Shown here: positions 9,301-32,000 of the stretch, one piece after another
How positions within the stretch are numbered: the first letter of the stretch is position 1
Layout of the letters: every line of letters begins with the position of its first letter
Made by a program: the position numbers and the translations under genes
Notes under the pieces: generated by a model
Database searches by the model: none
Told to the model about the DNA's origin: nothing
Seen by the model: the letters and a program-made list of their open reading frames with translations, nothing else
Source: Candidatus Methanoperedens sp.
GTDB taxonomy: Archaea > Halobacteriota > Methanosarcinia > Methanosarcinales > Methanoperedenaceae
Length of the DNA: 32,000 nucleotides
Direction of reading: 5' to 3'
Assembly (NCBI GenBank): GCA_026552855.1
Contig: JAPMTX010000164.1
Span: forward strand, 1,216 to 33,215

Positions 9301-12300
9301 ACACGTCTACCTCACTGAACTATAGCCACAGCCTGAACGAGGGAGTTGCAGGCGGTGCAAACTGTGTCGGTTGCCATAATGCTGGAGGCACAGCAGGACC
9401 TGGACGGCTTGTCAATGTTAGTGCGATGAATGACACCAATGCAATCCACAAGAACCTTAACCGCAATGCTGTAACATCTCTTTCTGCAGAGAACAAGAAA
9501 TGCTGGGCTTGCCATGGAAGCGGCAGTGAACCCGGGAGTGGTCATCCGTCCAATTACAGGACACCATACAGATGCGCGGATTGCCATATCTCCGGCGCAG
9601 GACAGAACACCAATTTCACGCCAAGTAATATACTGGAAGTCACTCAGCACTACTGGAACGGTACCAGCATCAAGACCTCAGCAGTTACATCATGCTATGA
9701 CTGCCATAATAAGAACGAAATGATGCTTGGTCTGAACCTCGATCCAGATGGTGCAGCCAGTGTATACGGTGGAGCTAATGGTGGCAGCAACAGCACAAGC
9801 CACTACGGCAAGAAGAGATCAGATTATCCTGTTCAGGGAACTAACGAATATTGCTATCAGTGCCACAGCAATCCATCAACAGCTTTCCCGTTCGTAGATG
9901 CTGCGAACAAGACCATAGCAAACCACTCAACTAACTATGCATCAAGTCCGAATTGTGCTGACTGCCATGCAACACAGGCGGGAAGGATACACAACAGTAC
10001 GCTGTATAAACCAGCATTCAGCCTGCCGAACTCAACATTCTGCCTGAACTGCCATGGAGCAGGCGGAAGTGCTGCTATAAAGAACAAGGAACAGCACAAT
10101 GGAATCCTTGATTGTACGCAGTGCCACCTGAACTCAACAAGGAGCATACATCCAGTGCGGTACCTGCAGGATGGTGGTGCAAGCTGGGATACTGCCAGGA
10201 CAAATGCAGTTAATTGTACGAATTGCCACCAGGGTGCAGGTATAGCAGGGTTTAATAACGCCCCGATAATCCCAGACACATTAAAACACAGTGCAAGCCT
10301 CTCAAACGGCACGACATGGGGCACGTACTGGACATCGGAGCAGGGCTCATGTTATTATTGTCATGGGAACACGAAGCACAATAACACAGCTCTTGGTACT
10401 ATCAACAGCTTAACTCTTGATCCGAATAACACCAGGAGTGGAGCTCTCACCACAACCACTTGGTGCGCTGATTGCCACTACAGCGACTCAGCCAATGCCA
10501 ATTATCTTGGCAGCCAGTGGAGCCCAGCGCCTCCAGCAATCACAGTCAATAACACAGGCAAGAGCGGCTGGGAGAACCATACCAGTTATATAGCCAGCGG
10601 ATACAAGGATGAAAAGTGCAGGTCATGCCATGCCCTGAACGGAGCATATGGAACAACCTCACTGAACTATTCGCACAGCCTTAATGTAGGCATAAGCGGT
10701 GGCGCTGATTGTATAAGCTGCCACTATGTGGGCAGCTCGTACCATAACATCGATACAATAGCAGCCAATGCCAGTGTCCATTCAGGTATGAATAGCAATA
10801 ACGCTACCAGCGCAGGCTTCGCAGCGATCGACGGTGCATGCTGGGCATGCCACGACACGGATGGAAACGTTACAAACAATCCGAGCAATCAGATAATGGG
10901 CGATATATACAATACACCCAAGAAATGCGACGACTGCCATCTTGCCTCAGGTACGTATTACTCACAGGCATCAGGCTGGGGTGCGCCAACTGTAAGCGAA
11001 CATTATTACAGTGCGAGCCAGATAAAAGCTGGAAACTCAGACTCGAATATAGCTTCATGCATCAACTGCCATGAGAACGTAAGCGAGATGGTACTCCGCA
11101 ATAACGATTCAGATTATGGCTCATTCGCAGGAGACGGTATCAGGCTCGCAGGCGGAAACATGAGCTTCTATCACTACGGTAAATCCAGAAGTGATCTACG
11201 CACGTGGGATTCAGGTCAGGCAGAAAATTGCAGCTACTGCCACCAGAACACAAGCACAGCGTTTGCAGCAGGTATGCTCAATCCGGCCTACAACAGCTCA
11301 ATCCAGAACCACAGCTCAACTCAAGCATCGCCAGGTTGCTACAATTCAACCTGTCATAACAGCGGCTGGATACACAACAGTACTCTTACCAGACCTGCAT
11401 TGAATCCAGACAGCGCAGCGACGTTCTGCCAGAACTGCCATACAACCAAGCAGAAACATAACGGTACTCTTGACTGCAGCAACTGCCACATCAACCAGAG
11501 CAGCACCGACACGATCCATCCAATAAAGTTCTTACAGAACTCAGGTTCATTTGATCTCATCAGAACATCAGCAGTTAACTGTACGAGCTGCCACCAGGGT
11601 GCAGGTATAAGCGGGCTTAATGCTCCAAAGATACCAGATCCAGTAAACCATTCTGTATCACCCAGTGCAGGTCAGAAATGGGGCAACTACTGGGACAATA
11701 CCTCACAGGTAACTGCATGCTATTACTGCCACCAGAACGAGATCCATAAAATCAATGCTGACCTTCTCGGCAATGTCTCAACTGTAAAAGGCTCAAATAC
11801 CTTCAATAACGCAGACCTTGCAAATTCAACATGGTGCGCGAACTGCCACTATGCTGGCGCCCAGGAATACAAAGGCATGTTCTTACCCGTACCTCCACCC
11901 GAGATAACGGATGCAAGCCTTGTAGCCAGCGATGGGACAATGTTCTTTAACCACAGCGGACTTTCGAATTTCAACGACTCCAACTGTAAGGCATGCCATG
12001 GACTTGTATTATCAGGATATTCGGAAACCTCACTTAACTTCTCGCACAGCGTAAGCGTGGGAGGCGGCGGAGATAACTGTATTGACTGCCATGGCACAAA
12101 TTACATCGGAGCATCGCCGTCGGTTACCCGGACATTCGTTAACATCTCAGCCTTCAACGAATCCATTCACCAGGACATTAACAATACCCCACCGGCTACC
12201 ATGGAGAACCTTGATTGCTGGTCTTGCCACTATAATAAGGACATGAACCGCCAGAACGTAAAGAAATGCGGCGACTGCCACAGGAAACCGAGCCAGTGGC

Positions 12301-12344
12301 ACGGTAATGCCAATATTACTACCAACTTATCAGAACTCTGGTAA
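6315..12344 (+). CDS. Giant secreted multiheme cytochrome (2009 aa, ~48 CxxCH plus 2 CX4CH by manual count)
   Basis: A GGAGAG SD lies 8 nt upstream of the ATG. The signal peptide ends ...SNTAYA/AQ. An N-terminal Ig-like domain is followed by heme motifs throughout. Four copies of a ~450-aa 12-heme module are present, the last truncated. N-x-S/T sequons are dense. Confidence 0.9.
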   Translation: MQLKKNTPTVDGLIKFSIVLLLTILLVSNTAYAAQVLQVSSSRHSLFSPWMNKASDTSLSANFTAYALFLNTNGTPVSGANITFEIYSQSVKKVTKYNNTQQNGLASVPYDTINDFTASTDTDYGNWSIVAYPTGNPALKDKINMSIQAGGSALQGCSKDYCHETATKDVGGYPRSPYTDSYGQSNTRAEAAHTQSNHANAGCYYCHVGYAATKTGTYGYTGDVHRNRTCDFCHGTWTYIRDTGSSGGKGIPKMPSCSDCHLIFNNNLTDMNTLANLAAGNNISVYSYNYDRKAPLTAHNGTDYSLIKSVPCVVCHGPAHNNTKPDPNIVNTNNVTEYTQCISCHNSYNRHNNSVSCTVCHSQDAHSIKVFAQNATYVTGKTNPARGNCTNCHQNSTFQDILEAQPKAGGYTGRNPPQIPTPLNHSIDPYSGALWNGTQPGYWNNKSQLSACNYCHGSVLHNTSALGNISKVKGTNFLNQSLIGGSWCANCHYKNAPNYAGNQFSPQPPEVLNLNGLVPSNARDGTTFYNHSDALSSGSDDATCKGCHNNRLASDATSLNLSHNVATGSEGGRDCVSCHDKGKSIEKVDVSKMNQTDSIHNVLNNNSVIVTPGLNPDNKRCWACHTNSSLGADNVVNEAELPSSGHPNSYNVPKKCTQCHIQGNFSGLVVSEHFSGSTDIRTKFYANTNDSCVNCHNKTEMLLPNSDPSGPKSIYASVSHYGSNKTNDVPYISGSSANCSYCHQNLTSAFTTEMNDASWNSTISNHTALGTNPACINCHNSGRIHFATLTKPAVSATLCANCHTNKDKHNGSVQCSQCHMQSNRSIHPIQYLQPDATFKVNSPANKSTAINCTNCHQGAGITGFNNAPIIPDPLKHSANLSNGTIWGMYWTSEQGSCYYCHGNTKHNNTALGRINNLTQDANNTKNGALQTTTWCADCHYSDAANTKYLGSQWSPVPPTITIDNTGKNGWQNHSTYLSGGYRDSNCQTCHASNGTYTSTSLNYSHSLNEGVAGGANCVGCHNAGGTAGPGRLVNVSAMNDTNAIHKNLNRNAVTSLSAENKKCWACHGSGSEPGSGHPSNYRTPYRCADCHISGAGQNTNFTPSNILEVTQHYWNGTSIKTSAVTSCYDCHNKNEMMLGLNLDPDGAASVYGGANGGSNSTSHYGKKRSDYPVQGTNEYCYQCHSNPSTAFPFVDAANKTIANHSTNYASSPNCADCHATQAGRIHNSTLYKPAFSLPNSTFCLNCHGAGGSAAIKNKEQHNGILDCTQCHLNSTRSIHPVRYLQDGGASWDTARTNAVNCTNCHQGAGIAGFNNAPIIPDTLKHSASLSNGTTWGTYWTSEQGSCYYCHGNTKHNNTALGTINSLTLDPNNTRSGALTTTTWCADCHYSDSANANYLGSQWSPAPPAITVNNTGKSGWENHTSYIASGYKDEKCRSCHALNGAYGTTSLNYSHSLNVGISGGADCISCHYVGSSYHNIDTIAANASVHSGMNSNNATSAGFAAIDGACWACHDTDGNVTNNPSNQIMGDIYNTPKKCDDCHLASGTYYSQASGWGAPTVSEHYYSASQIKAGNSDSNIASCINCHENVSEMVLRNNDSDYGSFAGDGIRLAGGNMSFYHYGKSRSDLRTWDSGQAENCSYCHQNTSTAFAAGMLNPAYNSSIQNHSSTQASPGCYNSTCHNSGWIHNSTLTRPALNPDSAATFCQNCHTTKQKHNGTLDCSNCHINQSSTDTIHPIKFLQNSGSFDLIRTSAVNCTSCHQGAGISGLNAPKIPDPVNHSVSPSAGQKWGNYWDNTSQVTACYYCHQNEIHKINADLLGNVSTVKGSNTFNNADLANSTWCANCHYAGAQEYKGMFLPVPPPEITDASLVASDGTMFFNHSGLSNFNDSNCKACHGLVLSGYSETSLNFSHSVSVGGGGDNCIDCHGTNYIGASPSVTRTFVNISAFNESIHQDINNTPPATMENLDCWSCHYNKDMNRQNVKKCGDCHRKPSQWHGNANITTNLSELW
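7479..12344. repeat. Intragenic tandem modules of ~1.35 kb (12 heme motifs each): 7479, 8868, 10215 and 11580 (truncated)
   Basis: The anchor motif NC-T-[NS]-CHQ recurs at aa 389, 852, 1301 and 1756. Modules 2 and 3 are about 83% identical at DNA level in a 60-nt spot check (8881.. vs 10225..). Confidence 0.8.
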
Positions 12345-21073: not shown

Positions 21074-21754
21074 TTACGGATTCGTTCCATCCGCTGTCAC
21101 ATTACCACCCTTGGTATGTGTCTCATTATAGCTGTTGTTGGCTGAGATATGGATGGTGTATAAACCGCTGGTGTTCTCATAGACTAATAGATCCATGCCT
21201 ACAGATCTTCTCCAGGTTGCATTGATGTTGGTGTGGGTATGGCAGCCTACGCATGCTTCATTTGCGCCTTTCAGAATCGTTCCGTTGTTTTTAGCACCGG
21301 CTAACGCAGAGGTATTGGTAACACTCTCATTGTAGAACGGTCCATGAGCTTCATTAACATTCAGCAGCTCACCCGGAACTCCTGTATGGCATCCTGCGCA
21401 TTCCATTGTCACTGCTGCATGGGCACCCTTTTCTGCTACGTTCTGAGAAAAATTACCGCTGTAATCACGTGTCCCGTTGGAAAACTTGGCTATCGGTATG
21501 CTGTCTATGGTACCGGTTCTGTGACAACCTTTACATTCTTTAAGTGCAGGAGTATTGACATGCGCTGTAGAAATGCCGTACTGACCTGAGGCAGAGCTCA
21601 TTTCATCATAGATATCCTGATGGCATTTTTCACACCTTACACTTGTTCCGTTGTCGAAAGTATGCTGTCCTGCAAAGAGCGATAATGAGTTTGGCATTGC
21701 GAACAGCCCCACTGCCGCCACTGCGACAGTTAGCAAAAATATTTTACTGTTCAT
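21074..21754 (-). CDS. Tetraheme c-type cytochrome, 'LFAGQH' family (226 aa)
   Basis: Four CxxCH motifs (CEKCH, CKGCH, CAGCH, CVGCH). The N-terminus is MNSKIFLLTVAVAAVGLFAMPNSLSLFAGQH. An AGGAGG SD lies 7 nt upstream. Confidence 0.85.
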   Translation of the reverse strand: MNSKIFLLTVAVAAVGLFAMPNSLSLFAGQHTFDNGTSVRCEKCHQDIYDEMSSASGQYGISTAHVNTPALKECKGCHRTGTIDSIPIAKFSNGTRDYSGNFSQNVAEKGAHAAVTMECAGCHTGVPGELLNVNEAHGPFYNESVTNTSALAGAKNNGTILKGANEACVGCHTHTNINATWRRSVGMDLLVYENTSGLYTIHISANNSYNETHTKGGNVTADGTNP

Positions 21755-21949
21755 GATATTTCCTCCTTACCTATCTATCATAAATTTATTAAGACAAGAT
21801 ATAATCTAACGTAATTATAATTGTATTTTGTATGGTATATATCTTACTATCTATTCCTCTGAAGCCCTTGGATTGATGCATCTTACATCCTGTAAACATT
21901 AACTGAGTTACAGTTGCATACTTAAATCAGTAACTACTAATCAAAGGAT

Positions 21950-22954
21950 ATGAAAATATTGCTGATCCCTGCACTTCTGCTCGTCATTGCATCAGCGTAT
22001 ATTTCCTCGGTTGTATTCGGCAGTCTTGACGACCCGCTCTACTGTGCCAGGTGCCACGTATCTAATTATAAGTCTTACATTTCCCCGCCTAACAATTCGG
22101 ACATGCCAGCCCATAATAAAACAGGCATTACCTGCATAGAGTGCCATTCTTCTCCAGGATTCCAGTCAAGTCTGGCTGCTAAAAAGTTCCTCATAAATAT
22201 CCAGTTCATAAACTACTCACTCCCTGTGCTTAACAGGCTTTTGTCCTCAAATTTTACATTGAACCAGAGTGTTAATGCCTCAGATTTTGCCATACTGAAA
22301 GCCAACTGCACAAAATGCCATAATGTTAAAAAGATAACCTCATTTAAGTTCAACCATTCCAATACTTCCTCCTGTGAAGGCTGCCATATCATGCACAAAG
22401 AGATGCCAACAAAGCCCGATACGAGCTTCTGGAAGCGCATGGGCGAGGGAGGGCACAGGAACAGGACATGCGGAGATTGCCATGGAACCGACCCTACGAG
22501 ACTGGAAGATCTTCCACAGTGCACCAAATGCCATAAGCCCCACTTAAAGGATTCACTGTGGGACAGGAGCATCTGCCTCGGCTGCCACAGCGACCCGCAT
22601 CTTCCTGTCAGGGATGCCGTTTTCAAGGACACCCTGACAAAAGAGATGTGCGCTGCCTGCCATATTGATGTATACAACAACCTCACGATACGCAACAGCA
22701 AACATAACCAGAACGTACCCGCCTGCATCAACTGCCATCCCAAACACAGGCAGGCAGAGGCTTGTATAAAATGTCATAAACCCCACGGACCTCCTCATAA
22801 AGGCAGTAGTTGTAACAGTTGCCACAAATACGTCAGCGTATGCACCGACTGCCATACCAATCCGCATGACCCGCTAAACGGTCTTCCTACAATATCTGAT
22901 GAAGGACAGTGGGAAGAATTCGCAAAGCAGGTAAGAGACAGGAAAACGGGTTAA
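21950..22954 (+). CDS. Membrane-anchored 12-heme cytochrome with NapC/NirT/NrfH-like N-terminal module
   Basis: Twelve CxxCH motifs. A single N-terminal TM helix is followed by YCARCHVSNYKSY...H.K.GI.CIECH....F......K. This matches the NapC-type pattern C..CH.M...Y..Y..S.H......V.C.DCH..H.F...... Several CxxCHxPH doublets follow. Confidence 0.8.
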   Translation: MKILLIPALLLVIASAYISSVVFGSLDDPLYCARCHVSNYKSYISPPNNSDMPAHNKTGITCIECHSSPGFQSSLAAKKFLINIQFINYSLPVLNRLLSSNFTLNQSVNASDFAILKANCTKCHNVKKITSFKFNHSNTSSCEGCHIMHKEMPTKPDTSFWKRMGEGGHRNRTCGDCHGTDPTRLEDLPQCTKCHKPHLKDSLWDRSICLGCHSDPHLPVRDAVFKDTLTKEMCAACHIDVYNNLTIRNSKHNQNVPACINCHPKHRQAEACIKCHKPHGPPHKGSSCNSCHKYVSVCTDCHTNPHDPLNGLPTISDEGQWEEFAKQVRDRKTG

Positions 22955-23733
22955 TTATATCTCCTTTTTACAGGACTGCTGTCCGTATGATTATACGGCG
23001 GCGGAGGGATTATCGTGACGCTGACAGCCGTTCCTGTATGGCACCCTTCGCATGCCCAGTGCCCTTTTGAAATGCTTTCGCCGTATATGTTGCCCGGCGT
23101 CTGGTTGAACGCCATAATTGCCGCATAACGTGAGGATTGGTTGCTCGTCTCCAGGTAGTATGGCTGGTGGATATTCGCCTGGCTCAGGTTATGCCCTGCT
23201 GCTGTAGTATCCGGCGCGGTCTTACCGAAGAGCAGCGGATTGTTATAAATGTGATTCCTGTTACCATGGCACCTGTCATCATCGCACCCTCTTATCACTA
23301 TCCCCGTATGGTCTGTTGCACCAGCAAGAGATGCATTATGACATAGCATGCATATCTCAGCCCCATCTATTATGCCGTTATTATTCCTGTCAAGGCTGAA
23401 ATTCCGAAGCTGTGATCCATCCTTCCATGCTTTTTGGGTTGAATTCCATGTCCAGTTTGTCCCATCGTATGCTGTTATAACCCCGGCAGAATAATCTATG
23501 CCCCCAAGGGAAAGGTATGTAGTATAATTAGTATTACCCGCCGCATCCCTGTGTTTTTCATAAACATACCCGCTTGTTTCAATCTCAGCCAGTATATCGG
23601 AGTGGCACTTCTCGCACTCTATTCCCATCCCGCTGTAGTACGTATGCTGACCTGCGAACAATGCTACCGTCCTGGGCATTGCATAGAAGCTGACAGCCAT
23701 AAAAGCCAGGAATAATATTATTTTCTTGTTCAT
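22951..23733 (-). CDS. c-type cytochrome, 'LFAGQH' family (260 aa; 3 CxxCH plus 1 CX4CH) with an EF-hand-like loop
   Basis: Heme motifs are CEKCH, CMLCH, CDDDRCH and CEGCH. The N-terminus is MNKKIILFLAFMAVSFYAMPRTVALFAGQH. DRNNNGIIDGAEI lies immediately before CMLCH. A GAGGTG SD is present. Confidence 0.8.
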   Translation of the reverse strand: MNKKIILFLAFMAVSFYAMPRTVALFAGQHTYYSGMGIECEKCHSDILAEIETSGYVYEKHRDAAGNTNYTTYLSLGGIDYSAGVITAYDGTNWTWNSTQKAWKDGSQLRNFSLDRNNNGIIDGAEICMLCHNASLAGATDHTGIVIRGCDDDRCHGNRNHIYNNPLLFGKTAPDTTAAGHNLSQANIHQPYYLETSNQSSRYAAIMAFNQTPGNIYGESISKGHWACEGCHTGTAVSVTIIPPPPYNHTDSSPVKRRYN

Positions 23734-23740
23734 CTACACC

Positions 23741-24184
23741 TCATGAACCATTAAAATACTGTCTTGCCCTGTCATACACCTTGGCTTTGTTCCCTTTCGC
23801 AATAATATAATGTGCGGACTGGTTAATCCCGCTTATACTCCCGATATTATCATCCTGGTGTATAATTATGTTGTTAGTATCTATAGAGTAGTTAGTGTGG
23901 CAGTTGGTGCAGTAGATCTGCTTGGTAAGATTATGAGCTAAATTAATATTATAAAGCTCGGATGTGTTAGGATTGTAACCGTGGCATATGCATCCTGCAT
24001 TGCGATGGACGCTTGTATTCACAAAAGATACTTTATCCGGGTGGCATTTGGTACAGAACTCAGGCGCTGTGGTCTTATTCTCATAGACCGTATGCCCCCC
24101 TGAGAAAACAGCATAGGTTTTAAAAGTGGAGACCAGGAAAAGTGCCCCGAAGATTGCAAATATCAATAATATTCTCTTGTCCAT
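23741..24184 (-). CDS. Small diheme c-type cytochrome, divergent 'LFAGQH' family member (147 aa)
   Basis: Two CxxCH motifs (CTKCH, CTNCH). The N-terminus is MDKRILLIFAIFGALFLVSTFKTYAVFSGGH. The gene starts 4 nt after the stop of the 1070-aa gene. Confidence 0.7.
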   Translation of the reverse strand: MDKRILLIFAIFGALFLVSTFKTYAVFSGGHTVYENKTTAPEFCTKCHPDKVSFVNTSVHRNAGCICHGYNPNTSELYNINLAHNLTKQIYCTNCHTNYSIDTNNIIIHQDDNIGSISGINQSAHYIIAKGNKAKVYDRARQYFNGS

Positions 24185-24188
24185 TTGA

Positions 24189-27100
24189 TCACCACGATGA
24201 ATAGTTTTTATCAGGATACGTATGGCAGTAGTTGCAATCTACCGGTTTGTTAAATCCATATGTGGCAATAGCCTTATTATATAAATTCCGGTCATGGCAT
24301 ATTGTACAGTCTGTAATATCTACAACTGATACCCCTCCGACTTTATAATTGCCAGGGTCTCCAGTTATGTTGTGCCTTTCCCGCAGGTTGTTCGGGTCCA
24401 GAACAGCATGGCAGTCCTCACAGGCTTTTCTTGCGCCGATATTGTTATGCCCCCCGGTATGGCAGCTCCTGCAGATGACATTACCGTGAGGACTTTCATT
24501 GAACATGGCGGAATTAACGAATCTCGCAGGAGCTGTCGGACTCCCGCTGCTGTTCATAACAGGATAGGAGAAGTGGCAGTCTTTGCAGTCCCTGGCTGTA
24601 ATATTATGTAAAAAGGCATCCATTGTCCCGTTACCCGGACCGATGCTGTGGCAGGTTTTACATGTAGAATCGTTGTAATCCGGCGTCAGGTTATGGTAGT
24701 AGAAACCTGGCATGGTATTTACCGCATAAGTCCCGTTCGTGATCTCAGGAGGAACTGGAAGGTTTGCCGATATAAATGTTGATGTCATATCTTCGTAACT
24801 CTTTCCTCCGTTCGAATATCCCCGGTAGTGGCAGCCTGCACACCAGTTGCTTGTATTTGTAATACTTGAATTGACTATATTGTTCCCTCTCCAGTTCCCG
24901 GGTCTGCCGAGAGCCGCTGCCTTATGCCTGGTATCATTGTGGCAGTAAATACAGGCTGTAATCTCTGAAGTGTTGTCCCAGTAGCCTGATGAGTTCCAGC
25001 GCGTTCCGTTGGAGAGATTGTCGCTGTGGTGCATTGGAGACGGTATCTTTGGAGGTGCCCTTGACAGGTTCGGATAAAACGCAGGGTCCTGGTGGCAGTT
25101 AATGCAGTTAACACCCGTGGAATTGCTTGTACTGTAATTCACATCTGACTGGACTGACTGGAGGTATTTAACAGGGTGGATATCCCCACTGCTGTTAAGA
25201 TGGCATTCCGTACAATTCACCGAATTATTGTGCTTCTGCCTGATGCCGGTAACCATTCCTGAGTAATTCGTTCCTCCGGTGTCGTTGCTGCCATGGCATG
25301 ACAGGCAGAATGTTGAGTTGGGAAGAGTAAGTGCAGGCTTGGTAAGAGTGGAGTTGTGTATCCAGCCTGAGTTGTGGCACCTGATACATCCCGGATTTGA
25401 GTTATTATAGCGCAGGCTGTGGTTAGAGATGTTACTGTTGTTTGAGTCCATCATTGCTACAGCGAACGCCGTGCTGGTATTTTTATGGCAGTATGCGCAG
25501 TCGGCAGCATTCCCCTGCCTGACCTGCGGGTCAGGAGCCCTGCTTCTGCCGTAGTGTGAGGGAAGTGAAAAGTTTGTACCATAATTATCGCCTGTATAAT
25601 CCACTTTCATCTCGGTCAGGTTGTGGCACATTATACATGAGGAAGAATTGTCAGAAGCATTTAAGGCTGCCTTTATACTGGTCCCGTTTATGAAATGCTG
25701 GCTCACGTTCGGGGCATTGCTGACATTACCATACGGTTTGCCTGTACCGTTGTGGCAGTCATAGCACTTATACGGGTTGCTGAACCGGCTGCCCATACTG
25801 TCGTTAGCCGGCTGGCTTCCGGCGGAATCATGGCATCCCCAGCATTTCTTGTTCTCGGCTGGTACCCCTGTTGAATTAGTCGCATTCCTGTTCAGGTTGG
25901 CATGGATAGCGCCGCTTGAGTTCATGGCTGAACTATTTACCTGGTGAAATGCAGACTTTCCTGTATTATGACAGTCTATGCAGTTCGGACCCGCAACGAA
26001 GGTTACATTATGCGGGTCACTCCCATGACAGGTTGTGCATTGCGTCCCCATATTATGAGTTATGCCTGAGTGGCAGGTCCTGCATACTGTAGCATCCAGG
26101 GTGTAGAGGGATTTTACATCGTGCTCCCGGTTATGGCACAGACCGCAGGCTACTGTTTTCCGGGTAGAATGCGTCGTGTTTTCGATGGAATCGGGAATGG
26201 TTGTATTGTTCAGGATTGATCCTGGTCTCGGATGGCAGGTTATACAATTCGGTTTAGTTATCAGACTGGTCAGGTTATTATGGCAGTCATTACATGTCGC
26301 GTTCAAATAATGTCTATCCAGACCGTAGCGCGGGGATAGGGCGTTTTGACCGGTCGTAATATCGCCGTGGCAGTTCACACATGCAAGAGCCGCATTTCCA
26401 CCTGACGAAGTTCTGTGGCAGTTGTTGCATTGTCCTGCCCGTGGATGCGCTACCCAATCGGGATAATGGAGACTATGGCAGTCCCCGCATTGAAGTGTTG
26501 AGGTAATGAAATTACCCGGATCAGGGTGTTCCACATATATCTGTGTGGTATCGAAGTGCTTTGGATGAACATATCCTGATTCGAATGTAGAAGGATAATT
26601 GTCTCCACCAGCACTGTGGCAGTTAGCGCAGCCCCATCTCAAGACGCTGAACTCTCCTGCAATATTGGGATAATCTGTTATTCTTATCACGTATCCGCCT
26701 TCATCCAGATAATCAGGCAGAACGAAGTCACCTGAATAAGGACCTGCACCGCTCAGGTTCGTTCTTCCTATCTCGCCGCCTGTGCTGTTGTAGATAACAA
26801 CTTCCAGCGAGAGACCCTGAACATAGCGTCCGCTAACGTTATTAAGAATTGCAGTGGATATGTTTACAGTCCTGAAGTTAGCAGGCGAGCCTGTCCATCC
26901 TGGTGGACTTACCATGTACTCCGAGGGACTTGTCCATACACCTGGTCTGAGAGTTACGAGAACGCTCGCTGGCACCGAATCATTGGCATTTGTAAAGTTC
27001 CAGCTCTCAGGCTTATAGTAGTAAGTGGTGTTTGCGGATAGACCTGACAACCTGATGCTCACATTGAATGTATTATTGTTCCAGATGCTCCAGCTCCCGT

Positions 27101-27401
27101 TCGTCAGATTATTGATATCTGTTTCACTCATACCATAATATACTCTGCTACTGCCGGGGATGTTGGTATCCCAGAAAATAAAAGAGCCGCTGGAAGTGGG
27201 TCCAGAGTTTGTCAGATTAGAAATGGATGGAGAAAAATAAGGGTTGGATGCGGCATTTACTCCATTTGTACCTGAATTGAAAAAAGGCGAGCCGGCGAGT
27301 ACCAGAAGAAGTACGGTTATGCCGGTAAGAAAACGGGCTGGAAGTTTTCCTCTATCAGAGGCAGCCATCAGCTTTATCAAATGCGAACCTGTCCTATCCA
27401 T
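24189..27401 (-). CDS. Giant secreted 26-heme cytochrome (1070 aa), mosaic of modules shared with the 569-aa and 2009-aa proteins
   Basis: I counted 26 CxxCH motifs by hand. The N-terminal ~476 aa are near-identical in stretches to the 569-aa protein. The middle ~450 aa align with the 12-heme module of the 2009-aa protein. The last four heme motifs form a unique C-terminal segment. Confidence 0.9.
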   Translation of the reverse strand: MDRTGSHLIKLMAASDRGKLPARFLTGITVLLLVLAGSPFFNSGTNGVNAASNPYFSPSISNLTNSGPTSSGSFIFWDTNIPGSSRVYYGMSETDINNLTNGSWSIWNNNTFNVSIRLSGLSANTTYYYKPESWNFTNANDSVPASVLVTLRPGVWTSPSEYMVSPPGWTGSPANFRTVNISTAILNNVSGRYVQGLSLEVVIYNSTGGEIGRTNLSGAGPYSGDFVLPDYLDEGGYVIRITDYPNIAGEFSVLRWGCANCHSAGGDNYPSTFESGYVHPKHFDTTQIYVEHPDPGNFITSTLQCGDCHSLHYPDWVAHPRAGQCNNCHRTSSGGNAALACVNCHGDITTGQNALSPRYGLDRHYLNATCNDCHNNLTSLITKPNCITCHPRPGSILNNTTIPDSIENTTHSTRKTVACGLCHNREHDVKSLYTLDATVCRTCHSGITHNMGTQCTTCHGSDPHNVTFVAGPNCIDCHNTGKSAFHQVNSSAMNSSGAIHANLNRNATNSTGVPAENKKCWGCHDSAGSQPANDSMGSRFSNPYKCYDCHNGTGKPYGNVSNAPNVSQHFINGTSIKAALNASDNSSSCIMCHNLTEMKVDYTGDNYGTNFSLPSHYGRSRAPDPQVRQGNAADCAYCHKNTSTAFAVAMMDSNNSNISNHSLRYNNSNPGCIRCHNSGWIHNSTLTKPALTLPNSTFCLSCHGSNDTGGTNYSGMVTGIRQKHNNSVNCTECHLNSSGDIHPVKYLQSVQSDVNYSTSNSTGVNCINCHQDPAFYPNLSRAPPKIPSPMHHSDNLSNGTRWNSSGYWDNTSEITACIYCHNDTRHKAAALGRPGNWRGNNIVNSSITNTSNWCAGCHYRGYSNGGKSYEDMTSTFISANLPVPPEITNGTYAVNTMPGFYYHNLTPDYNDSTCKTCHSIGPGNGTMDAFLHNITARDCKDCHFSYPVMNSSGSPTAPARFVNSAMFNESPHGNVICRSCHTGGHNNIGARKACEDCHAVLDPNNLRERHNITGDPGNYKVGGVSVVDITDCTICHDRNLYNKAIATYGFNKPVDCNYCHTYPDKNYSSW
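25970..27401. repeat. Right arm of the ~1.4-kb inverted repeat (partner 4512..5960)
   Basis: See the left arm. Identity is 95-98% in the spot-checked stretches, interrupted by a divergent patch around heme motifs 2-3. Confidence 0.8.
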
Positions 27402-27726: not shown

Positions 27727-28032
27727 ATGGTTGGACTGGAAAGCTCGATGGATCTTGCGGAAACGGCTAAGAAAATCAAGAGACCTGAAGTCGGAAGTAC
27801 AGAAAGGGAGAGACAGAATAAGTTCCTTGCACAGTTGAGAGCCCGTAAACCGGTAAAGATAAAATCGGCTTCACCAGAGAAAAGAAAAGCGAAGCCGAAA
27901 AAAGGAAAGAAAATGAATAGAGCCAAGAAAGGTGAGACCTATTACTGTACGGTCTGCGGCTGTGAAATCATGTGCACAACCAGCAGCAAAAGCCCGATCG
28001 TCTGCTGCGATGAAGTAATGTACATATTTTAA
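27727..28032 (+). CDS. Desulforedoxin-like Fe(Cys)4 domain protein with a ~60-aa lysine/arginine-rich N-terminal extension
   Basis: The C-terminal YYCTVCGCEIMCTTSSKSPIVCCDEVM matches desulforedoxin spacing (C-x2-C-x15-CC, as in YKCelCGqvv...lvCCGedM). A strong AGGAGG SD lies 7 nt upstream of the ATG at 27727. Confidence 0.65.
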   Translation: MVGLESSMDLAETAKKIKRPEVGSTERERQNKFLAQLRARKPVKIKSASPEKRKAKPKKGKKMNRAKKGETYYCTVCGCEIMCTTSSKSPIVCCDEVMYIF

Positions 28033-28113
28033 TTCGCAGGTTTGCGGAATATATGCATTCCAAAAGCTTTATTAGAACATCATATACAATAGTGGATGAA
28101 GGAGGTTAGAACC

Positions 28114-28284
28114 ATGTGCAGTACATATGTGCCGTTCTCACTGATGCCTGAAGACCTGGAGCGTATGGCAAAAGAAAGCGGGATGTTCTATTGTACATCA
28201 TGCAAGAAGACATTCATGATGAAGAACCCCAGTACAAGCTGTCCGCACTGCGGCTCAGATAAGATAAAGCCAAGAGCCAGATGA
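28114..28284 (+). CDS. Small zinc-ribbon protein (56 aa)
   Basis: The motif is CTSC-x13-CPHC. A GGAGG SD lies 8 nt upstream of the ATG at 28114, so I prefer this start over the ORF-track start at 28096. Confidence 0.55.
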   Translation: MCSTYVPFSLMPEDLERMAKESGMFYCTSCKKTFMMKNPSTSCPHCGSDKIKPRAR

Positions 28285-28310: not shown

Positions 28311-30482
28311 TCACCTGTTCTTAGCGTAGATAATGTTCCTGTCCATTAACCCCTGCAGGAGGCTCTTGCATTTCGATTCAGCCTCATCATTAGGAAGTTT
28401 GTACTTCTCTTTTATCGATTCAACTATTTCGGATACTTTGGATTCTCCCCTGCTCATCTCCAGTATATCCCTGGCAAAATCTGTTACAGTGAACACCCTG
28501 TTATTGTTGGTATCGAACAGTACGTTCACCCTTTCCTGCGCAAGCCCGTTCTTTTGAGCACTGCCAGCCATCATGTCATGTATTATCTGCGCAAGATTGA
28601 AATTGAACGTCCCTACAAAGACGCCTTCTTTGATTGATAGGTACTGCTTCCTGTTCTTCGGGTTAATGCCGACTTGCACTTTTTTTAATTGCTTCTTCTG
28701 TATCCTGTCAATCAGCATGGATATCTGCGGAACTCGATTTTTAGTCCTTTTGTAATGTGAGATATACAGGAAGAGGTGTTCCCTGTCAAGGTTGCTCCAG
28801 ACAGGAAAATCCCTGTACTTTAAGGAAAGCTCATTGTAGAACCCCTGTATAAGTGCGTCTGTTTCCTTCTTCGACATCCCGGAAGCTGTTTCATAATCGT
28901 ACCACAGGGAAATGTCAATATTATCGTCCTGGTTTACTCTCCCGACTTCGAACGATGATGGCGTCTCATATACTTTTGAATGTTTGGTGAGCTGAAAGCT
29001 GCCAAACGACATTGAGCGGATGATCGCGCGGTTTTGCAGGATGAAATCCATCGTCTCCCTTGCCTCCTCCCGCGTCTCAGTAGGGAACCCGAATATCAGG
29101 AAAAGGTGCGTCCAGATACCCGCCTCTGTACTGTACCTGCATATCTTCAATACATCCTCTTTTTTGATTCCCTTATCCATGCATTTCAGTACCCTCTCAT
29201 TGGCTGATTCCAGCCCGAAATAGAGCATCCTGCACCCTGCTTCAGAGAGCTTACTGCCGTATTCAGCAGAGAACGAGGGCTCAAACCTCGAATCCCCAAG
29301 CCACGATATTCCCAGCTTGTTACTTATTATCCTGTCAGAAAGGGCGCTCATCAGTTTTGTAGAGACCCCTTCATCCTGGAACGTAAAGAACCCTGTCTTA
29401 TATTTACTCTTCAGCGTCTCCAGGTCGTTGTAAAGCAGTTCAACGCTCCTCGGTCTGTAATTCCCTGAATAGCCGTATCCGTGGTCGCAGAACGTACACC
29501 GCTTCCAGTAGCATCCCCTGGATGAGAGCACCGGAAGTATCAGCTCGGGTGAAAAATACGCATCAAGGGGAAAACCATCGAAACACGGCGCAGGCAGCGA
29601 GTTTATATCCTCCCCTTCCGAACATATCCTGTTCATCCTGATAAGGTCCCCGTCCCTGTAGATAAGGTTCGGAACTTCCCTGACCTCAAGTTCATTGTCC
29701 AGGTGTTTGATAAGGCTAAGAAGCGCGGTCTCGCCCTCGTGTACGATCACGCTATCGAATACAGAGAACAGTTCTTTGTTCCGGCTTACCTCGTTTATAA
29801 GGCGCGTGAAGACGCTTCCACCGATGTTTATATGTACTTCTTTATCTGCTTTTTTAATAAGGTTCGCAAGCGTCAACCCGGGAATTAACTGGCTTGTATT
29901 GATTATTGAGATACCTATAAGATCCGCTCTGTCCCGCAGCAGTGCCGGGACCGTGTTTTTTTCAAAATAATCGATAAAAAGGTTCTCTTCCCGGTCATTG
30001 ACAGCCGAAAGTACTTCCCTGCTTGATCGGCACGAGTAGCGCATATCGTAGGAATGGAAGGTCAGGTTCGTGGGGTAGTATGCAGAAGATGCAAGTTTAA
30101 GACCAAGTTCAAGGAGTTTAAATGCCCTGAACAGTTCTTCTATATCGTAAAAATCCTCCTTATTCCTCAAAAGCCGTTTTGCATCCTCAACCTCGTTAAT
30201 AACGTATTCTCCAAAGAGCATGGAACTGCTAAGGGCAGCGTATTGCCCCTGAAGTTCGGGCAGCAGTTCTTTTTTAGAGTCCAGTTCCTGGAACCTCGAT
30301 TGCACTCTCTCAAAATGGTCATGAAGCCCCTGTTTGCTCAGAAGCGTATCATAAAATGATATATTGGCATCCATCTGTTCGACACTGCAGTGGCTGGCTT
30401 TTAAAAAGGCGGTCAGTGAAGGAAGACTTAAATAAGGCTGGGTTGGGATCCACTGGGGCGGGAAAACTAATCTCGTAAGCAT
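28311..30482 (-). CDS. B12-binding-domain radical SAM enzyme with PqqD/RRE-like C-terminal domain (723 aa)
   Basis: The cluster motif is SSRGCYWKRCTFCDHG (29487..29513). A B12-binding-type segment (DLIGISIINTSQLIPGLTLANLIKKADKEVHINIGGSVFT) lies upstream. The C-terminal NRVFTVTDFARDILEMSRGESKVSEIVESIKEKYKLPNDEAESKCKSLLQGLMDRNII matches the PqqD-like winged-helix pattern. Confidence 0.8.
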   Translation of the reverse strand: MLTRLVFPPQWIPTQPYLSLPSLTAFLKASHCSVEQMDANISFYDTLLSKQGLHDHFERVQSRFQELDSKKELLPELQGQYAALSSSMLFGEYVINEVEDAKRLLRNKEDFYDIEELFRAFKLLELGLKLASSAYYPTNLTFHSYDMRYSCRSSREVLSAVNDREENLFIDYFEKNTVPALLRDRADLIGISIINTSQLIPGLTLANLIKKADKEVHINIGGSVFTRLINEVSRNKELFSVFDSVIVHEGETALLSLIKHLDNELEVREVPNLIYRDGDLIRMNRICSEGEDINSLPAPCFDGFPLDAYFSPELILPVLSSRGCYWKRCTFCDHGYGYSGNYRPRSVELLYNDLETLKSKYKTGFFTFQDEGVSTKLMSALSDRIISNKLGISWLGDSRFEPSFSAEYGSKLSEAGCRMLYFGLESANERVLKCMDKGIKKEDVLKICRYSTEAGIWTHLFLIFGFPTETREEARETMDFILQNRAIIRSMSFGSFQLTKHSKVYETPSSFEVGRVNQDDNIDISLWYDYETASGMSKKETDALIQGFYNELSLKYRDFPVWSNLDREHLFLYISHYKRTKNRVPQISMLIDRIQKKQLKKVQVGINPKNRKQYLSIKEGVFVGTFNFNLAQIIHDMMAGSAQKNGLAQERVNVLFDTNNNRVFTVTDFARDILEMSRGESKVSEIVESIKEKYKLPNDEAESKCKSLLQGLMDRNIIYAKNR

Positions 30483-30540
30483 AAATCCACCATAAGCTTT
30501 ATGTGACCTAATAAAGATTTCATACTAAAAAGTGATTCCT

Positions 30541-30849
30541 ATGAATGATGACAAATCTAAATACGTTGGCGATGAATTCGCAGAAGAAAGTGAAACCGCG
30601 GTTAACGAGGAAGAAAAAGCACTTGAAGGAATGTATGATCTGGTATTGCCGCCGGGAGTTCCTCAAAAAGTAATCATGGAGGCTATAGATAAATTCAATT
30701 TAGAAGTTAAAACCCGTAAATGTGCGCTAAAAACCATAGATGTAGAAGCTGGGAATCTTCTTGTACTGCGCGGTGAATTAGAGGCAGTGAACAAAGCGCA
30801 TGATTATATTTACCAAAAAATTAGTGAAAAGTATAACTACAAGAAGTAG
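30541..30849 (+). CDS. Hypothetical acidic protein (102 aa from the ATG)
   Basis: This ORF is divergent from the radical SAM gene across a 58-nt spacer. I recognise no motif. The ORF-track start at 30532 is GTG, and an ATG follows at 30541. Confidence 0.45.
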   Translation: MNDDKSKYVGDEFAEESETAVNEEEKALEGMYDLVLPPGVPQKVIMEAIDKFNLEVKTRKCALKTIDVEAGNLLVLRGELEAVNKAHDYIYQKISEKYNYKK

Positions 30850-30929: not shown

Positions 30930-31184
30930 TTAAAATAATCGCTGCTTGTTGATGGGTCTTGTGTAGCCGGTTCCACCGCATACAGTGCATGGAATTCCCT
31001 TCATCAGAAAACCTCTACCCTTGCACCACTGGCACTTTTGTGTCATGTCAACGACTTCCACCTTTCCGGAGCCGCCACAAACAATGCATTTCTGATCCTG
31101 GTGTTTGCCTGTCCCGTCACAGTACCTACAAGTTACTTCACCGGGTATCCTCTGCCTTTTTTCTTTTGGTTTTGCTTCTGCCAT
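30930..31184 (-). CDS. DnaJ-type cysteine-rich zinc-finger protein (84 aa)
   Basis: Four CxxCxGxG repeats (CRYCDGTG, CIVCGGSG, CQWCKGRG, CTVCGGTG). Confidence 0.7.
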   Translation of the reverse strand: MAEAKPKEKRQRIPGEVTCRYCDGTGKHQDQKCIVCGGSGKVEVVDMTQKCQWCKGRGFLMKGIPCTVCGGTGYTRPINKQRLF

Positions 31185-31246: not shown

Positions 31247-31280
31247 AAAAAAATAAGAAAAGTAGGCATAAAGCCTACTT
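31247..31280 (-). terminator. mcr operon terminator: 8-bp hairpin followed by a T-rich tract
   Basis: The minus strand, 7 nt after the mcrA stop, reads aagtaggc-tttat-gcctactt followed by TTCTTATTTTTTT. Confidence 0.55.
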
Positions 31281-31286
31281 ATGGGT

Positions 31287-32000
31287 TTACTTTGCTGGGA
31301 TAACGAAGGCTCTCTCACCGGCGCAGCGGTCCCACTCTCTGAGTGCAGCCTTACCGAAGCATCCTCTTGGATCCGCGAAGTCGAAGTTGACTAACTCATC
31401 TGCGAAGCAGGCTTTGACCAGCGGGTTCACAACGAATGCATCCTTCTTTCCGGCGTGTGCTGCCTGAACTACTGCGGTGTATCCACCCTGATGTCCTACG
31501 TTCATTGCGTAGTTGGGGTAGTTAGCACCTCTGCACTCGCCTATGCAGCCCTCATCAGAGCCGAGCGAGAACACGTTGGTTGCGCCGCACTGATCCTGCA
31601 AGTCATACCCGTAGAATCCGAGTCTTCCGTGACCCTCTTTGTGGAGGTACATGCTCAGATACCATGCTGCTAGACCGGCATTGCTGTGTCCGGTTGCCAG
31701 AGCTGTTGCACCGCCTGCTGCCATTGCTACGGCTGTTGCTCTCAGTGAACCACCGAAATGGTCTTCCAGTGTTGTCGGGTACTTCTCGTATGCTTCAAGA
31801 CTGTACAATGTTGATTCTGTAGCGATATCTTTTACAGTTTCAATGGTGGCTTTTGCTTTGCTAAATCCACCGTACTTCTTAATTGCATAGTCAGTGCCCC
31901 AGTACAGGAAGTCGTCAAGGATATCGTTGCAGTATGCTGGTAATGCATACATTGTGAATCCGACGCCGCCTGACATGTAGCCGCCGAGCCATATCTGGTC
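31287..32000 (-). CDS. mcrA: Methyl-coenzyme M reductase alpha subunit, C-terminal ~237 aa (gene continues beyond the window)
   Basis: Diagnostic McrA blocks are present: (DQIWLGG)[57 protein letters not shown], and [10 protein letters not shown] at the C-terminus. The reading frame stays open to position 32000. Confidence 0.95.

Follow-up and report, generated by a model that had tools for sequence, protein, structure and literature searches.

Methyl-coenzyme M reductase (MCR) makes and consumes nearly all biological methane. In a stretch of 32,000 nucleotides from Candidatus Methanoperedens sp. (contig JAPMTX010000164.1, referred to in full as the window), the gene at positions 28311..30482 of the minus strand, near the MCR α-subunit gene mcrA, encodes a class B (cobalamin-type) radical S-adenosylmethionine (SAM) protein. 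The protein ends in an RRE, the recognition element of enzymes acting on ribosomally synthesized and post-translationally modified peptides (RiPPs). The product is a candidate for the enzyme that methylates the β-carbon of His159 in McrG, the MCR γ subunit. In the reading that we favour, and to which we give a little under six chances in ten, a class B radical SAM C-methyltransferase of RiPP-maturase ancestry would have been recruited to carry out this methylation before MCR is assembled.

The modification in question was described in atomic-resolution MCR structures from two enrichments of the anaerobic methanotrophic archaea (ANME) group 2d and from one of ANME-2c, with seven modifications each (PMC12413448, Nat Commun 2025). 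ANME-2d MCR is missing 2(S)-methylglutamine and carries instead a 3(S)-methylhistidine, with the methyl group on C-β, at γ-His159. This residue is absent from the MCRs of ANME-2c and of all studied methanogens, and was previously unreported in natural proteins (PMC12413448). The same work noted that the γ-His159 loop would be exposed in free McrG, and expected a dedicated methyltransferase with radical chemistry like that of Mmp10 or MgmA, naming no gene (PMC12413448). In our literature search we found no paper that assigns any gene to 3-methylhistidine or proposes this enzyme, and a comparative paper on ANME-3 does not mention radical SAM genes. An earlier note on this DNA, made from the sequence alone, had offered the protein as a possible uncharacterised McrA-modifying enzyme. 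Modification of MCR remains the best-supported reading, but the most likely target is the γ subunit and not McrA, because γ-His159 bears the only modification specific to ANME-2d.

The range of the gene coincides exactly with the lineage that has the 3-methylhistidine, the Methanoperedenaceae. A pattern-based scan of GTDB, with one genome per species and in which divergent genes may be missed, recovered orthologues of 61-79% identity in 40 species genomes of Methanoperedens/Methanoperedenaceae, and no orthologue in other methanogens or ANME. Below these orthologues there was a gap in identity, after which came Dehalococcoidia at 42%, Nitrospinota at about 36% (proteins of ~590-600 aa whose C-termini do not match the RRE region), a Thermococci metagenome-assembled genome (MAG) at 32% and Bacteroidales at 31-32%. 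The same picture emerged when 1.84 billion representatives were searched exhaustively with HMMER. The Methanoperedens clade formed one cluster at 1175 bits, the next match scored 597 bits at 41% identity, and nothing was found between the Methanoperedenaceae orthologues and the bacterial relatives at 41-42%. The nearest relatives with a named source are largely Dehalococcoidia, and this suggests an old horizontal acquisition. The base composition of the gene is not distinct from that of the window.

The second line of evidence is the position of the gene. It starts 804 bp downstream of the mcrA stop (31287 to 30482) and on the same strand, in agreement with the distance of about 800 bp given earlier, and the mcrA product of the window is 87% identical to McrA of M. 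nitroreducens. In M. nitroreducens the order is mcrB-mcrD-mcrG-mcrA, a gene for an 81-aa DnaJ-type zinc-finger protein, a gene of the MJ0093 family on the opposite strand, and the radical SAM gene; the same block is found in the window. When the proteins of the block were compared by tblastn with the 40 GTDB loci of the Methanoperedens clade, the block was present, in full or as far as the contig reaches, in 27 of the 32 informative species loci as well as in the window. Three loci with a short upstream flank showed the MJ0093-like gene only, and five had too little upstream sequence. Both features that would mark an MCR-modifying enzyme, a phyletic match to a specific modification and clustering with mcr, are thus found together in this gene.

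The linkage extends to the strains in which the modified histidine was seen. McrG of Methanoperedens sp. BLZ2 (locus L021) is identical to chain C of PDB 9qr1, and that of METP1 (L020) to chain C of 9qqt, except at position 159, which is given as X in the PDB sequences. In both crystallised strains the radical SAM gene lies beside mcr, about 2.5 kb downstream of mcrG. At the equivalent position, the McrG sequences of M. shengliensis and M. acetivorans in the PDB show an ordinary His. Around this residue all the McrG proteins of Methanoperedens in loci L001-L045 read RGCTVHGHSL, with Cys155 and Leu161 invariant (e.g. L021 6686-7432), and those of Methanosarcina and M. shengliensis (Methermicoccus) read RGATVHGHS[V/C], that is, Ala155 and Val or Cys161. 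From these alignments, the Cys155 and Leu161 that flank His159 may be an adaptation or plain phylogenetic signal.

The protein was read in the earlier note as having three parts, an interrupted B12-binding domain, a radical SAM core and a PqqD-like (RRE) tail, and Pfam, AlphaFold2 and Foldseek together bear out this architecture. Pfam places the protein in the radical SAM superfamily (PF04055 at residues 320-481, 63.4 bits against a cutoff of 29.5) and its C-terminus among the RREs (PqqD, PF05402, at residues 654-718, 32.8 bits against a gathering threshold of 23.4). The B12-binding profile PF02310 matches residues 176-256 through its positions 42-119 only, with 27.3 bits and E 3.4e-6, below the gathering threshold of 32.1; a match to it at E <= 0.01 was present in all 42 homologues scanned. 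The AlphaFold2 model, computed from 42 homologues (mean predicted local distance difference test, pLDDT, 88.5; predicted template modelling score, pTM, 0.90), accounts for the partial match. Strands β1-β2 of the Rossmann domain occupy residues 2-38 and those from β3 onward begin at residue 188, and the helical insertion between them splits the domain at β2/β3. In Foldseek comparisons with the PDB (top 50 matches), cobalamin radical SAM enzymes rank first for the whole protein, with OxsB at 5e-16 followed by TsrM and TokK; MgmA (9ccb, 6e-13) and AprD4 are further matches. OxsB, TsrM and TokK are B12 radical SAM structures with cobalamin bound, and the architecture is that of class B. Cobalamin binding and methyl transfer by the 723-aa enzyme are predicted from this fold.

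For the C-terminal domain the predicted topology is β-β-α-β-α-α, and the domain reaches a pLDDT of 82 when modelled alone. Foldseek matched the isolated domain first to TbiB1 with its leader peptide (E 8e-4, target-normalised template modelling score, TM, 0.83), and subsequently to PqqD, TfuB1, TglHI (the TglH-TglI complex) and CteB. The stand-alone RREs TbiB1, PqqD and TfuB1 all gave target-normalised TM values of 0.71-0.83 with probability 1.00. A profile of the domain searched against the PDB found PqqD-family proteins in all of its top five chains, weakly (E 0.015-0.7), and the Pfam PqqD match is kept in 39 of 42 members scanned. A different fold at the C-terminus had been named beforehand as an outcome that would speak against the earlier interpretation; the PqqD-type RRE fold stands. 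By analogy with its structural matches, the domain has a putative function in the binding of a leader peptide or of a segment of a partner protein.

The cluster motif, CYWKRCTFC with C324, C329 and C332, is CX4CX2C in place of the canonical CX3CX2C, as had been read from the translation. What does not hold is the idea that this spacing is an oddity of the protein. The longer motif SRGCYWx(R/K)C(T/A)FCDH is invariant in the homologue alignments, including a set of 41 homologues, and was found in 119 of the 120 closest homologues; CX4CX2C itself occurs in 143 of 149 best representatives of the wider family, and the motif of OxsB, SRGCDYSRCTFC, has identical spacing. Since it is widespread in the family and common to OxsB, the spacing is real but not specific to this gene, and from these alignments it is a family hallmark and no sequencing artefact.

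Family models did not place the protein in any described family. Among the best 25 NCBIfam matches, the last of them at E 0.0034, all scores were far under the family cutoffs. The best models were those of peptide C-methyltransferases and one P-methyltransferase: TIGR03975 (rSAM_ocin_1, RiPP C-methyltransferase; 118.8 bits over residues 169-513 against a cutoff of 281.85), PhpK (TIGR04479, P-methyltransferase; 114.9 against 600) and ApyD (NF050148; 112 against 750). Lower scores were given by HpnJ (75.5 bits against 577.6), the ladderane-lipid B12 radical SAM family (TIGR04072; 70 against 360), MgmA (TIGR04014; 57.4, in partial alignments only, against 360) and HpnR (31.4 against 650). The protein is a member of a distinct, uncharacterised class B family with an RGCYWxxCxFC motif and a split Rossmann domain. 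At E <= 1e-30 the exhaustive HMMER search gathered 2,278 clusters (50% identity), many of them with proteins of 560-750 aa, and an RRE is present in some only. Four giant proteins, P0159, P0171, P0237 and P0123 (1411-2331 aa), match the family in two to six separate stretches each and seem to consist of several class B radical SAM modules fused in tandem.

Two known MCR-modifying enzymes were considered and rejected as identities for the protein. Mmp10 (MamA), the C5-methyltransferase of an MCR arginine, is also a B12-dependent radical SAM enzyme often encoded beside mcr. It differs in architecture, with an N-terminal radical SAM domain and a C-terminal cobalamin domain, and in agreement with the distinction drawn earlier, neither an Mmp10 model among the best 25 NCBIfam matches nor an Mmp10 structure among the top 50 Foldseek matches was found. 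MgmA likewise belongs to the class B cobalamin radical SAM enzymes, its methyl group goes to an sp3 carbon of a residue close to F430 in MCR, and its gene is often clustered with mcr, but its model scores far below the cutoff, as given above. Unlike the protein described here it has ~420-450 aa and neither helical insertion nor RRE; its motif in 9ccb has canonical spacing where aligned (rgcpg-nctfc, with a one-residue gap, against rgcywkrctfc); and its target is the C-α of a McrA Gln, a modification with no counterpart in ANME-2d.

Three other systems share part of the architecture. The best profile matches, extending across the B12 and radical SAM domains, are the RiPP class B C-methyltransferases (TIGR03975 of the PoyB/PoyC type, and ApyD), which methylate peptides at unactivated carbons with leader-dependent recognition. 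The sister clades of our protein have precursor peptides, whereas the gene itself has no adjacent precursor and lies by mcr instead. The best match with a solved structure is OxsB of oxetanocin A biosynthesis (PDB 5ul2-5ul4; sequence E 1.4e-10, fold E 5e-16), with 744 aa similar in length to the 723 aa of the protein. However, OxsB acts on a nucleotide, catalyses a ring contraction rather than a methylation and has no RRE, and identity in the Foldseek alignments is only 16-19% with a TM of ~0.42. Finally, the PqqD-type RREs (PqqD itself and the lasso-peptide B1 proteins TbiB1 and TfuB1) have the fold of the C-terminal 70 residues in common with our protein. They stand alone, while here the domain is fused C-terminally to a class B radical SAM enzyme, and what it binds may be part of a full-size protein.

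On these grounds the following course of events can be proposed. An ancestor of the Methanoperedenaceae would have acquired the gene from a bacterial RiPP-maturase family and turned it to MCR maturation. The C-terminal RRE would grip an extended stretch of unassembled McrG, and the RGCTVHG-H159-SLRLQ loop would enter the active-site cleft. The [4Fe-4S] cluster held by C324, C329 and C332 would cleave SAM reductively to give a 5'-deoxyadenosyl radical, which would take the C-β hydrogen from His159. The resulting His159 radical would accept a methyl group from methylcobalamin, yielding 3(S)-methylhistidine, and the cob(II)alamin would be reduced and then re-methylated by a second SAM. There is a precedent in MgmA, which was recognised by phyletic profile and clustering with mcr, followed by expression in M. 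acetivorans and an assay on a 20-mer peptide, and which acts on unfolded peptide (PMC11796369). The assignment to His159 would follow, by analogy, the logic that correctly identified MgmA. A more detailed version, which we put forward tentatively and hold to be rather doubtful in all its parts together, is that of a captured RiPP scaffold: a segment within nascent McrG would serve as a built-in 'leader' to which the RRE binds while the enzyme installs the 3(S)-methylhistidine, perhaps with the help of the zinc-finger protein encoded between mcrA and the radical SAM gene.

Several points weigh against methylation of McrG. The assignment to His159 is drawn from genomic inference only, and since the gene is present in every Methanoperedens, its presence in the two crystallised strains discriminates little. 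The nearest relatives are RiPP maturases for small leader-bearing peptides, and McrG is a subunit of 249 aa; furthermore, none of the known MCR-modifying enzymes works with an RRE. Of the folded domains of the protein, the RRE is conserved least, with a mean identity within the clade of 54% versus 77% for the barrel core, which is usual for RREs, yet compatible with relaxed constraint. In five loci (L014, L041, L042, L027 and L029) no mcr gene is found within 3-10 kb. These relocated loci fall at no fewer than three separate positions of a neighbour-joining tree, and therefore adjacency to mcr appears to be ancestral with several losses; in L029 an upstream open reading frame (ORF) resembles, by eye, a transposase fragment. 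Between mcrA and the radical SAM gene there are a terminator-like hairpin and a gene on the opposite strand, and the radical SAM gene would therefore not be co-transcribed with mcr. The hairpin is weak evidence in itself, and suggests that transcription from mcr does not simply run on into the gene; the scan for sigma-70 promoters and terminators gave counts not above those of shuffled sequences and is of little value for an archaeon. Lastly, the search for leader peptides is insensitive to short peptides, and other lineage-specific radical SAM genes, or a precursor peptide encoded at a distance, may exist; the comparison covered loci.

The most serious rival, although clearly the less probable explanation, is that the protein is an ordinary RiPP maturase for a small peptide encoded elsewhere, or nearby in an unusual orientation, and that its position by mcr is a historical accident. 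A maturase for an unidentified peptide had been put forward in the earlier note as well, and it remains a serious rival because the closest relatives outside Methanoperedens are such maturases. In three members of the sister clade (41-43% identity) the enzyme gene is directly preceded by a small ORF (L004 9658-9858, L005 312-476 and L006 3771-4049). The three encoded peptides are homologous (pairwise E ~1e-6 to 2e-8 in a small database) and have in common a helical leader, V.KAVEALK..SPEVL.EA..EIPEM; two of them continue into an Asn-rich core, ANNNNNNNN and AAANNINGGQNN. In a Methanosarcina MAG, a 38%-identical paralogue lies in a precursor-bearing cluster, between a gene for a radical SAM protein with SPASM domain, a second B12 radical SAM gene and a Frankia_peptide precursor. 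As these relatives outside Methanoperedens sit with precursor peptides, the family is taken to have been ancestrally one of RiPP maturases, in which the RRE presumably binds leader peptides. The other outcome named in advance as adverse, relatives in organisms without mcr and with no peptide-like neighbours, is likewise not what was seen: peptide-like neighbours are present. The intact fold of the RRE also fits a peptide maturase, as does the gene's location away from mcr in five species, in four of which (L014, L041, L042 and L027) the zinc-ribbon and desulforedoxin-like genes that flank it in the window are retained beside it.

Against a peptide maturase, no precursor was found near the Methanoperedens gene. 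No precursor gene adjoins it either in the window or in L001, the M. nitroreducens locus, and in the window no small ORF lies ahead of it on the same strand, where the 50 bp upstream reach the divergent MJ0093-like gene. The three leader peptides, searched by tblastn against the window and 22 kb of M. nitroreducens, gave a best E no better than 0.02. A leader profile run against 5.8 billion proteins returned four peptides, none from Methanoperedens, a weak negative given its low sensitivity for short peptides. Nor is a protease, a transporter or a second tailoring enzyme conserved beside the gene, and its linkage to mcr, in 27 of 32 loci, is better kept than that of any downstream neighbour (19 of ~35).

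Some observations were made on the relatives themselves. The precursor family of the sister clade, which is of Dehalococcoidia type, is apparently undescribed, the four peptides being all that were found among the 5.8 billion proteins. The RiPP-like cluster of the Methanosarcina MAG (L068-L070 6400-12000) holds a PF14407 precursor and lies beside cobalt/ECF transporter genes. Each of the Nitrospinota homologues (L047 and L050-L056; ~590 aa, without RRE match) has a conserved cupin-like protein of ~105 aa encoded ahead of it, which points to another partner, perhaps not a peptide, for this branch. Two candidate motifs were set aside. A leader-like motif, REAVEILKQLQAYDPKVLTDL, in proteins of 207-214 aa encoded upstream of the Bacteroidales homologues was left unused, as it accompanies a twin-arginine-like signal and may be due to chance, and a comparison by eye of the leader motif with the N-terminal helix of McrG, DDLEKLRDIADEDLTAILGHRAPG, gave no convincing match and was dropped.

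An improbable alternative, less so than some but well behind a peptide maturase, keeps the protein in the service of MCR in another role, either in the formation of didehydroaspartate or 6-hydroxytryptophan or in the modification of a neighbouring protein (the 84-aa zinc finger or the 62-aa zinc ribbon). Chemistry other than methylation is carried out on a class B fold by AprD4 and by OxsB, which is the best structural match. We know of no enzymes for didehydroaspartate and 6-hydroxytryptophan, which counts in favour of this alternative, and the zinc-finger protein is apparently restricted to the lineage and always found between mcrA and the radical SAM gene. However, both of these orphan modifications also occur in the MCR of ANME-2c (PMC12413448), a group with no member of this particular radical SAM family, and they are disfavoured as targets for this reason. 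In the atomic-resolution ANME-2d structures, 3-methylhistidine is the sole lineage-specific modification reported (PMC12413448). The zinc-finger gene, for its part, is missing in all five relocated loci.

Non-peptide substrates are common among class B radical SAM enzymes, and the protein has weak, sub-threshold NCBIfam similarity to HpnJ, the ladderane-lipid B12 radical SAM family, BchE and BzaD. A lipid (as the earlier note had allowed), a cofactor such as F430, or a quinone is nevertheless a most improbable substrate, since the scores of these lipid, hopanoid and other models are all far below their cutoffs, an RRE of peptide-binding type is retained across the clade, the relatives are linked to peptides, and the F430 of ANME-2d MCR is the classic, unmodified one (PMC12413448).

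The coordinates of the gene, its domains and its neighbours are given in Table 1. The zinc-finger protein next to mcrA consists almost wholly of its CXXCXGXG domain, is kept at this spot in 27 Methanoperedens loci, and has homologues found only at 70% identity or above. One may speculate that it serves MCR maturation as a holdase peculiar to the lineage. The pair formed by the MJ0093-like gene and the radical SAM gene is conserved in the loci adjacent to mcr. In the ~50 bp between them, inspection by eye shows TTTATTA ~26 nt upstream of the ATG and GGTGGA just before it, and the radical SAM gene probably has its own promoter. On the downstream side the neighbours are less stable than upstream. 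The zinc-ribbon gene adjoins the radical SAM gene in 19 loci, including four of the five relocated ones, and often comes before the desulforedoxin-like gene, of which some loci have a truncated second copy; in the M. nitroreducens lineage a gene for an NTP-transferase takes the place of the zinc ribbon. None of the four small proteins encoded around the radical SAM gene reached a cutoff in the NCBIfam scan.

Table 1. Positions in the window of the radical SAM gene, of its domains and of the features around it
Feature	Position	Strand	Evidence
Class B (cobalamin-type) radical SAM gene with C-terminal RRE, 723 aa; candidate McrG His159 C-β-methyltransferase	28311..30482	-	ORF, Pfam/NCBIfam, AlphaFold2, Foldseek
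Rossmann-type cobalamin-binding domain, residues 1-290	29613..30482	-	Pfam partial match, AlphaFold2 secondary structure
Helical insertion in the Rossmann domain, residues 39-182 (~145 aa)	29937-30368	-	AlphaFold2 model
Radical SAM partial TIM barrel, residues 315-500	28983..29540	-	PF04055, AlphaFold2 model
[4Fe-4S] motif CYWKRCTFC, C324/C329/C332	29487..29513	-	Translation, alignments
PqqD-type RRE (winged helix-turn-helix), residues 651-718	28329..28532	-	PF05402, Foldseek, PDB profile
mcrA, 3' part (MCR α C-terminal domain), running off the window end	31287..32000	-	PF02249, 180 bits
Terminator-like hairpin and T-run just past the mcrA stop	31260..31280	-	Consensus scan only
DnaJ-type CXXCXGXG zinc-finger protein, 84 aa, between mcrA and the radical SAM gene	30930..31184	-	PF00684, 33.8 bits
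MJ0093-family protein, 105 aa, divergent from the radical SAM gene	30532..30849	+	L001 orthologue PF27275, position conserved
Zinc-ribbon protein, 62 aa, convergent with the radical SAM gene	28096..28284	+	Zinc-ribbon Pfam/NCBIfam matches, sub-cutoff
101-aa protein with Lys-rich N-terminal part and desulforedoxin-like CxxC C-terminus	27727..28032	+	PF06397, 18.9 bits, sub-cutoff

Elsewhere the window holds a large island of multihaem c-type cytochromes (45-12344 and 21074-27401), typical gear of Methanoperedens for extracellular electron transfer. The largest has 2009 aa and 48 CXXCH motifs (6315-12344, plus strand), another has 1070 aa and 26 CXXCH motifs (24189-27401, minus strand), and nine are smaller. 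The N-terminal part of the 1070-aa cytochrome is 68% identical to a 569-aa ORF at 4512-6221.

The modifications of MCR affect its activity and must be reproduced in heterologous systems for methane capture, and this gene is a single, clonable candidate for the 3(S)-methylhistidine that the 2025 structures left without an enzyme. If the more detailed version, that of a captured RiPP scaffold, is true, the product would be the first histidine C-β-methyltransferase and the first enzyme of a γ-subunit MCR modification, and no large metabolic enzyme would have been known before to be modified with the help of an RRE. If the favoured reading is true, histidine C-β-methylation would join radical SAM chemistry, and protein maturation would be a task to which RiPP machinery can be turned. 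It would also give a function to one branch of the large, uncharacterised CX4CX2C class B family, with its more than 2,000 clusters at 50% identity.

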